Positions 43,614-43,670 of a stretch of DNA of 64,000 bases are shown piece after piece. Numbering within the stretch: the stretch's first letter is position 1; every line of letters begins with the position of its first letter. Made by a program: the position numbers and the translations under genes. Under the pieces are notes generated by a model. It made no database searches. It was not told the DNA's origin and saw only the letters and a program-made list of their open reading frames with translations. Source of the stretch: Nitrospiria bacterium (GTDB lineage Bacteria > Nitrospirota > UBA9217); the NCBI GenBank assembly GCA_919901555.1, contig CAKKPG010000132.1:13957-77956 (forward strand), read 5' to 3'.

Positions 43614-43670
43614 CCTGTCTACTGTCTACTGTCTACTGTCTACTGTCTACTGTCTACTGTCTACTGTCTA
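43614..43670. repeat. Perfect heptanucleotide tandem repeat (ACTGTCT)x8; last unit overlaps the asd stop codon
   Basis: gcctgtct actgtct actgtct ... actgtct acc read directly; located in the 68-bp gap between asd and the decaheme cytochrome gene (same strand). Confidence 0.9.

Follow-up and report, generated by a model that had tools for sequence, protein, structure and literature searches.

The 64-kb window described here (the whole stretch of 64,000 nt from contig CAKKPG010000132.1 of a Nitrospiria bacterium) carries a perfect heptanucleotide repeat between asd-2, the second of two aspartate-semialdehyde dehydrogenase genes that lie in tandem, and the gene for a membrane-anchored decaheme c-type cytochrome; as an earlier note on this DNA had stated, asd and the cytochrome gene share a strand; both lie on the minus strand (Table 1). 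Tandem Repeats Finder reports a period of 7, 8.1 copies, 100% matches and a score of 114 over 43615–43671, the raw sequence at 43615–43670 matches this call, and a 21-nt three-unit probe finds 6 overlapping matches where 0.00 are expected (100 dinucleotide-preserving shuffles of the window). These results confirm the perfect eight-copy, 7-bp repeat of the earlier note, whose ACTGTCT phase and start at 43614 are off by one base: base 43614, C on the plus strand and G on the minus strand, lies outside the exact tract. The minus strand reads ...GAA CTG ATT AGG TAG ACAG (TAGACAG)7 GCTTCC..., and the repeat does supply the asd TAG stop, through its first unit in the direction of transcription and not, as had been written, its final one. 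The asd-2 open reading frame including this stop spans 43668–44681, and the same arrangement, with the stop inside the first unit, is found in every allele seen. Because the first TAG directly follows the last sense codon whatever the copy number, gain or loss of units cannot alter the asd protein, and the earlier idea that it might change the asd C-terminus or stop does not hold. A TAG recurs every 7 nt along the array, so that each of the three frames meets a stop before 21 nt have passed, and ATG, GTG and TTG are absent from every frame of the eight units. Apart from the first TAG, which overlaps asd-2, the tract lies outside coding sequence, with the cytochrome start 45 nt downstream of it. 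The tract at 43615–43670 is the sole place in the 64-kb window where a search detected CAG or CTG recurring every 7 nt, and it is not a multicopy element within the window. The tract belongs to a known kind of element, the intergenic heptanucleotide long simple sequence repeat (LSSR), similar to the short tandemly repeated repetitive (STRR) sequences.

Both dehydrogenases score above the cut-offs of their NCBIfam models (asd-2, NF011456 at 499 bits and TIGR01296 at 465 bits; asd-1, above the equivalog cut-offs of TIGR01745 at 640 bits and NF005144 at 656 bits). The cytochrome has the ten CxxCH motifs and NapC/NirT-like N-terminus expected from its earlier description as a membrane-anchored decaheme protein downstream of asd, and the Pfam NapC/NirT N-terminal domain passes its cut-off (26.6 versus 24.1). 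The models for DmsE-family decaheme cytochromes (TIGR03508, 35.6 bits, cut-off 192.2) and NrfH (TIGR03153, 55 bits, cut-off 134.2) fail, and the label 'extracellular electron-transfer-type', which the protein had also been given, is not established by scores below both cut-offs. The heme-motif Cys and His residues and M1 are invariant in an alignment of 16 cytochrome homologues; this invariant M1, together with the 278-aa products that gene callers give on identical contigs, places the start at ATG 43569–43567. A previous value of 68 bp for the spacer rested on a GTG start at 43599; counted to the conserved ATG, the asd–cytochrome spacer is 98 nt and consists of 56 nt of repeat (of which 3 are the stop codon) and a 45-nt unique segment.

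Table 1. Features at the repeat locus and the other period-7 arrays of the window (window coordinates).
Feature	Position	Strand	Remarks
Heptanucleotide repeat, (CTGTCTA)×8 on the plus strand	43615..43670	minus (coding) strand reads (TAGACAG)×8	Perfect units
asd-2 TAG stop	43668..43670	-	Made by the first repeat unit in transcription direction
asd-2, aspartate-semialdehyde dehydrogenase, asd_B type, 337 aa	43671..44681	-	Pfam PF01118 + PF02774
asd-1, aspartate-semialdehyde dehydrogenase, asd_gamma type, 370 aa	44707..45819	-	Immediately upstream of asd-2
Membrane-anchored decaheme c-type cytochrome, 278 aa	42733..43569	-	Pfam PF03264, PF14522, PF14537
Unique spacer, repeat to cytochrome ATG, 45 nt	43570..43614	-	In-frame GTG at 43599-43597; conserved in close relatives
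Hairpin 5' arm (predicted)	43614..43639	-	Last ~3.6 repeat units + G at 43614
Hairpin 3' arm (predicted), unique, pyrimidine-rich, CCUGUUACUGCGUGCUGCCUGCCGU	43586..43610	-	Loop 43611-43613
(GCATGGG)×5.6 + adjoining (CTCTTCC)×20.6	14339-14531		497-nt spacer between minus-strand genes 14540-15568 and 13107-14042
(CGGAATG)×2.7	46494-46512		Overlaps leuB TGA stop
~Ten degenerate AATTNNN units	2166-2245		Between co-directional minus-strand genes
(AATTGAA)×3.7	8161-8187		Between co-directional minus-strand genes
(ATGATGC)×4	62165-62193		Between co-directional minus-strand genes; then inverted GCATCCTG

Comparison of orthologous loci, which the earlier note had proposed, revealed that the repeat is not invariant. 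We read alleles from assembled contigs of the same or sister populations, retrieved by exact-protein look-ups; the identical and near-identical ones derive from groundwater metagenomes of Hainich, and L001–L011 share 99.1–100% DNA identity with the window. At this one locus, between flanks that are 89–100% conserved, close strains and sister lineages carry alleles of 2, 3, 4, 7, 8 and at least 9 units. Two units are present in L200 and, in imperfect form (TAGACAG AAGACAG), in L195 and L196; three perfect units in eight samples (L187–L194) and also in L198 and L199, and three imperfect ones (TAGACAG TAGGCAG TAGGCAG) in L185 and L186; four units in two independent H52 assemblies (L001/L201 and L203); seven in L184, from another lineage; and eight in the window. 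The contigs L003, L007, L011 and L197 end with 54–55 nt of pure repeat. Sister lineages (L185–L200) hold two or three units, and a strain 99.4% identical to the window holds four. Between the window and L184 the units have stayed perfect while the adjacent 45-nt spacer differs by about 10%, a combination that indicates ongoing slippage. The four-unit allele pairs with cytochrome haplotype P0128 and the long alleles with P0121 and P0130, and the three-unit allele is identical in its eight samples, all from one population. Because the four-unit and long alleles sit on different strain haplotypes, the contig data show evolutionary lability but do not demonstrate rapid switching within a clone. 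The tract was thus correctly recognized as a slippage-prone simple sequence repeat.

The assembled unit number has to be read with the assembler in mind. Four SPAdes-style contigs of the window's strain (L003, L007, L011 and L197, 99.1–99.98% identical) are broken inside the tract, and such breaks at k = 55 imply that the tract spans at least 9 units (upwards of about 62 nt) or that lengths are mixed. At k = 55, the minimum length, in multiples of 7, at which a de Bruijn graph can traverse any tract of at least 8 units is 56 nt; because this is the shortest output at that k, the eight exact copies in the window sequence, although present as described, may be a lower bound. By contrast, 28 nt (four units) is not a collapse length at k = 21, 31, 33 or 55, and the four-unit allele is therefore real. 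Left-flank contigs assembled at k = 31 (L004, L005 and L008–L010) break off with exactly 28 nt of repeat, two of these samples also yield right-flank contigs (L204 and L205) that begin at G + 28 nt, and scaffold L002 reads R28-N10-G-R28 (R, repeat). This is the pattern expected when a four-unit and a longer allele share one sample, as a pure loop would give 29–30 nt. Heptamer tracts break short-read assemblies, with at least 10 contigs broken here; an assembled count of eight may merely mirror the k-mer size, and copy numbers in metagenome-assembled genomes are not to be trusted at face value.

A scan for the cytochrome with one genome per species returned 52 Nitrospirota loci (L012–L063). In about 48 of these 52 species asd-2 lies immediately upstream of the cytochrome gene, at a distance of 6–7 nt in L013–L015 and mostly of 60–100 nt elsewhere. 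Given the conserved order and the 6–7-nt spacers of these relatives, co-transcription is the most economical reading; asd-2 and the cytochrome gene are probably co-transcribed, and the tract more likely belongs to intercistronic RNA than to a promoter. Among these other Nitrospirota species, none has a perfect heptamer array in the asd–cytochrome spacer. At this position, the nearest species outside the cluster (L062, L055 and L031) have NCAGNAG arrays that are degenerate and accompanied by an inverted arm: in L062, about eleven degenerate ACAGTAG units precede an inverted (GTATACC)4 array, and L031 has TCAGAAA TCAGGAG ACAGTAG CCAGGAG. In many relatives, TAG-TCAGGAG... follows the asd stop and ...CTCCTGA stands about 10 nt before the ATG. 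The window tract looks like a homogenized expansion of one unit from such an older degenerate array. The linkage itself, with tandem asd paralogues (asd_gamma and asd_B) followed by a decaheme cytochrome at 42733–45819, is odd, as is the attachment of a cytochrome gene to amino-acid biosynthesis genes across the Nitrospirota clade.

The unique spacer contains a pyrimidine-rich segment, CCUGUUACUGCGUGCUGCCUGCCGU, that resembles about three repeat units in inverted and degenerate form, and in silico the end of the repeat folds onto it. For the four-unit allele, ViennaRNA predicts a hairpin of 21 pairs at −24.2 kcal/mol (z = −3.09), and 0 of 200 dinucleotide shuffles are as stable. The predicted pairing probability of the 3' arm is 0.82–0.85 from three units up, so that folding saturates at n = 3–4, and surplus units are predicted mainly to set the base of the stem farther from the asd stop by adding unpaired RNA: with four units the stem begins 3 nt past the stop codon, and with eight units a further 28 nt are unpaired. 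The 3' arm ends 16 nt before the cytochrome AUG. We considered and rejected an effect of copy number on start-codon accessibility, as the predicted accessibility of positions −20 to +12 around the AUG stays at 0.45–0.53 for n = 1–16. The cytochrome gene lacks a Shine–Dalgarno (SD) sequence, with an anti-SD duplex energy of 0 compared with −5 kcal/mol or better for about 15 of 24 neighbouring genes. No rho-independent terminator was found in the spacer, in which the 3' arm is followed by GUAUACCGAACUCUUCCC and no U run, and no Rfam family matched positions 42000–48000 of the window at E values up to 1. Within the hairpin 3' arm and upstream of the cytochrome ATG, close relatives (L184, L185, L187 and L198) carry a mini-ORF of 5–6 codons that reads ATG CTG CCT GCC GTA TAC TGA, or TAA-ending variants, and ends 9–12 nt before that ATG. 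At the corresponding 43570–43599 in the window the mini-ORF start is GTG and its stop is lost (CGA), leaving it in frame into the cytochrome; this GTG is the start codon chosen in the earlier note.

Heptamer arrays beside stop codons are common in this genome. The 64-kb window holds six period-7 arrays, all in spacers between co-directional genes, and four of the six, including the tract, start no more than 10 nt from the stop codon upstream (Table 1); the arrangement is not special to the cytochrome locus. In 692 kb of DNA from the clade, 24 of 36 short tandem repeats have a period of 7, as do 12 of 24 once rows duplicating the asd–cytochrome locus are set aside. The same or a similar heptamer array follows leuB in other Nitrospirota (L027 3576–3601, L061 3742–3770 and L035 3602–3625), and this recurrence in other species shows that stop-adjacent heptamer arrays can be positionally conserved. 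A comparable excess of heptameric LSSRs is known in some bacteria and has been attributed to polymerase slippage (Mrazek et al. 2007, as summarized in PMC4692102 and PMC4679880).

With moderate confidence, we read the tract as a slippage-prone intercistronic repeat that provides the 5' arm of a hairpin, in which the hairpin is the functional part and the extra units are neutral or mildly modulatory. The tract would have expanded recently by slippage, from about three units to eight or more. In the mRNA, which would read (UAGACAG)n, the first UAG would terminate asd-2 and the array would otherwise be translationally inert, offering stops in all frames and zero start codons, and the last three to four units would pair with the unique pyrimidine-rich arm to form a hairpin of about 21 bp upstream of the cytochrome AUG. 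The function probably lies in this hairpin, which would serve as an intercistronic attenuator, a processing site or a coupling element. The extra units would be a by-product of the genome's strong tendency towards 7-nt repeats in intergenic spacers and would lengthen the single-stranded stretch from the asd stop to the hairpin; their effect on cytochrome expression would most likely be small and graded, or none, and would not amount to an on/off promoter switch.

Several points weigh against this reading. The full 121-nt region with eight units has a z of −0.39 and is not more stable than its shuffles. A clade-wide intergenic hairpin was convincing in hand-picked relatives and was downgraded when the mean z in an unbiased set of 19 relatives proved to be only −0.59: the hairpin is not shared by all, and on the folding model it is a feature of the window lineage and a subset of relatives, not of the whole clade. 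Co-transcription is deduced from gene order and spacing, and formation of the hairpin in the cell from a thermodynamic model; this model is blind to kinetic, RNase and ribosome-coupling effects, through which copy number could have a real effect. The retention of perfect units across lineages could also mean that selection acts on the tract itself.

In the alternative that fares best, though it is less likely than the reading above, unit number would tune cytochrome output in a graded manner and more units would give less protein. The closest characterized system, by analogy, is Haemophilus influenzae hmw1A, in which a transcribed (ATCTTTC)n repeat forms the left arm of a hairpin in the 5' untranslated region (UTR) and the right arm is unique (Rapun-Araiz et al. 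2025, PMC12721329). There RNase III cleaves the hairpin, and expression was shown experimentally to fall as units rise (PMC12721329). The architecture of the window locus matches that of hmw1A and hmw2A in its 7-nt unit, its position upstream of an open reading frame and outside the coding frame, its repeat in the left arm of a hairpin (here a predicted one) facing a unique right arm, and its strain-variable copy number (PMC12721329). At the window locus such tuning could run through RNase III processing of the repeat-containing hairpin, or through a longer distance from stop to hairpin that weakens re-initiation at a start without an SD, a route that we regard, like the graded control it would explain, as possible but tentative. 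Consistent with it, the cytochrome gene has no SD and relatives with 6–7-nt spacers would permit direct translational coupling, the predicted stem moves from 3 nt after the stop with four units to a distance 28 unpaired nt greater with eight, and co-occurring strains differ in copy number. The hmw hairpin differs in that it comprises 10 repeats in 122 nt, has a natural minimum of 11 units and belongs to a surface adhesin of a pathogen, whereas here only three to four units are predicted to pair, allele sizes run from 2 units to at least 9, and the repeat is intercistronic, supplies the asd stop and precedes a respiratory cytochrome of a groundwater bacterium. Predicted stem occupancy and start accessibility are constant for n ≥ 4, alleles follow strain haplotypes with no evidence of variation within a haplotype, and similar heptamer arrays lie beside unrelated genes, which speaks against a gene-specific adaptation. 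Were unit number nonetheless to tune cytochrome output, repeat-based control would extend from the surface antigens of pathogens to respiratory proteins of free-living subsurface bacteria, and from promoters to intercistronic RNA.

Classic slipped-strand phase variation, as the earlier note proposed, would have unit number alter the geometry of a cytochrome promoter (spacing, UP element or activator phasing) and switch the gene on and off. A long perfect repeat does lie directly upstream of the cytochrome gene, its number does vary among close strains, and a weak −10-like TATACC (TATAAA in L198) stands 14–19 nt before the ATG. A consensus scan of the spacer found no sigma-70-like promoter on the gene strand, however, the best hand-found −35/−10 pair matches only about 7 of 12 positions, and a tract of at least 56 bp is longer than any −35/−10 spacer. 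Relatives with only 6–7 nt between the genes, a product that is an inner-membrane or periplasmic respiratory protein and not a surface antigen, and a three-unit allele that is constant in eight samples of one population all run counter to such a switch, which we consider decidedly unlikely. What survives of the earlier proposal is a variable repeat upstream of the cytochrome gene; an effect on promoter spacing and a promoter-type switch are unsupported, and predicted structure and accessibility are flat beyond three to four units. Promoter or leader repeats of this kind underlie phase variation in pathogens at Neisseria nadA (TAAA) and at Moraxella uspA1 (poly-G) and uspA2 (AGAT) (cited in PMC4679880). 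Those genes resemble the window locus in having a tandem repeat of strain-dependent copy number between the upstream region and the start codon, and differ from it in having a mapped promoter or 5' UTR and copy-number-dependent expression, whereas no promoter is detectable here and gene order suggests an intercistronic position.

A periodic binding array, with unit number setting the occupancy of a HutP-like RNA-binding antiterminator or a DNA-binding regulator, appears very unlikely. HutP contacts UAG at a 7-nt period (U498, U505 and U512) 5' of an intercistronic terminator stem (PMC2425495). The 5' part of a HutP-type site, at least three UAG at 7-nt spacing 5' of the stem, has its counterpart here in eight UAG-N4 units of 7-nt period, directly 5' of the predicted stem and overlapping it. 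Set against this, the 3' arm and spacer contain no AG dinucleotide and so no second XAG-rich site, there is no terminator U-tract, sister species carry other unit sequences (TCAGGAG and others) at the same position, the other arrays in the window have unrelated units, and HutP is a Bacillus protein. We dropped readings of TAGACAG as a LexA box or as a TRAP-like or CsrA-like site for misfits of spacing, orientation or sequence; CsrA requires GGA, which is absent from TAGACAG. That an assembler created the tract or its copy number is scarcely credible: eight units (56 nt) are precisely what the shortest route around a period-7 loop would give at k = 55, and several assemblies break or carry Ns inside the tract, yet it recurs with identical flanks in more than 20 independent contigs that differ in sample, assembler and k value, and the three-, four- and seven-unit alleles are shorter than k and are spanned by real k-mers, so that assembly doubt concerns only the exact unit number of the window and not the existence of the tract.

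Comparable arrays have been described in other bacteria. Like the cyanobacterial tandemly repeated heptanucleotides, the Xanthomonas GGGAATC and the Nostoc GGGGA(T/C)T repeats, the window arrays are perfect or near-perfect intergenic 7-nt arrays, several per genome, whose length and sequence vary between close relatives (PMC4692102, PMC4679880). Such arrays sometimes occur as inverted pairs able to form stem-loops, and slippage favouring a 7-nt period has been proposed (PMC4692102, PMC4679880). Those genomes reuse a few unit families, whereas the units in the window all differ (TAGACAG, GGAAGAG, CCCATGC, CGGAATG, GCATCAT and AATTNNN). The literature that we retrieved contains no description of Nitrospirota as a phylum with abundant heptamer repeats. 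TAACTGA direct repeats of marine Beggiatoaceae, Cyanobacteria and Bacteroidetes, for which a post-transcriptional role was proposed and not demonstrated (MacGregor 2015, PMC4679880), are likewise intergenic, stop-bearing heptamers near the start codons of genes that often lack a canonical ribosome-binding site. They differ in lying a few nucleotides before starts, usually in 2–6 copies of one genome-wide unit; the window array, by contrast, abuts the upstream stop, lies 45 nt from the start and has a locus-specific unit. In Geobacter metallireducens, five tandem MTYCTGA units, paired in inverted orientation, have been described as 'class 3 global regulator sites', for example between proB and proA (PMC2700814). 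These share with the window locus and its relatives the pairing of opposite-strand tandem heptamers inside amino-acid biosynthesis operons, and the Geobacter units CTCCTGA and CTTCTGA are those found in the spacer 3' arm of many Nitrospirota relatives. The Geobacter arrays are fixed at five units and were interpreted, without experiments, as binding sites for IHF/HU-type proteins; unlike these pairs, the window array would be a homogenized expansion on one arm only.

The unit also occurs beyond this locus. Screening metagenomes for (TAGACAG)×3 brought up at least 120 contigs, whose GC contents run from 0.31 to 0.73; the asd–cytochrome locus was not among these matches, which added no further alleles. 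An inverted (CTGTCTA)2-like array lies within 200 nt downstream in 29 of the 83 arrays with adequate flanks and upstream in 0 of 83. In the 29 paired elements the left neighbour is a stop codon in 16 and the right an opposite-strand stop in 17, the array's own TAG often serves as the stop codon, and in many of the elements A5 and T5 runs border an enclosed GC-rich core, which gives these elements a terminator-like look. No Rfam family reached its gathering score on 14 metagenome loci with inverted heptamer arrays, and a literature search for the TAGACAG unit found no relevant paper. We regard it as doubtful that the tract belongs to an uncatalogued and widespread class of intergenic hairpins with the polarity 5'-(TAGWCAG)n–core–(CTGWCTA)n-3', borne on stop codons and attenuator-like between or after genes. 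If it did, slippage in one arm would provide heritable, finely graded control of expression ratios within operons, and at this locus it would set the amount of decaheme cytochrome made from an amino-acid biosynthesis operon. A further candidate, pyrimidine-sense arrays as SD-replacing leaders before starts, was set aside, as its enrichment is weak (28 of 93 versus 15 of 91) and confounded by spurious open reading frames in high-GC DNA. Individual elements take the form 5'-(TAGACAG/TAGTCAG)n–core–(CTGACTA/CTGTCTA)n-3' (L064–L183; for example L112, L135, L147, L166 and L183). In L091 (2395–2510, from Hainich H41), about 14 units of TAGACAG, TAGACGG or TAGGCAG are followed by an inverted pyrimidine arm, and the array lies about 200 nt upstream of a prepilin-like gene cluster.

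Two of the other arrays in the window have features of their own. On the gene strand, the array at 14388–14531 reads (GGAAGAG)×20 and begins 9 nt after the upstream stop; its twenty successive GGA motifs resemble, by analogy, a CsrA-type sponge. The (ATGATGC)×4 array at 62165–62193 and the inverted GCATCCTG that follows it could form a hairpin. Around the asd–cytochrome locus, two small divergent XRE-family helix-turn-helix genes (42054–42685) lie immediately downstream of the cytochrome gene, a pair that is present in all close relatives examined and might regulate the region. Between leuB and asd-1, the window strain carries a toxin–antitoxin-like pair (DUF4258 and an MqsA-like antitoxin) at 45926–46455; contigs L001 and L002, which are 99.4% identical to the window, align to it without anything matching this segment, a gap that suggests an insertion specific to the strain. 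Longer in-frame repeats lie within two large genes of the window: a 1,069-aa protein with subtilisin-like (Peptidase_S8) matches (54402–57611, plus strand) contains a 441-nt unit repeated 3.8 times at 55854–57518, and a 1,096-aa open reading frame (9820–13110, minus strand) contains a 126-nt unit repeated 2.4 times at 11396–11695.

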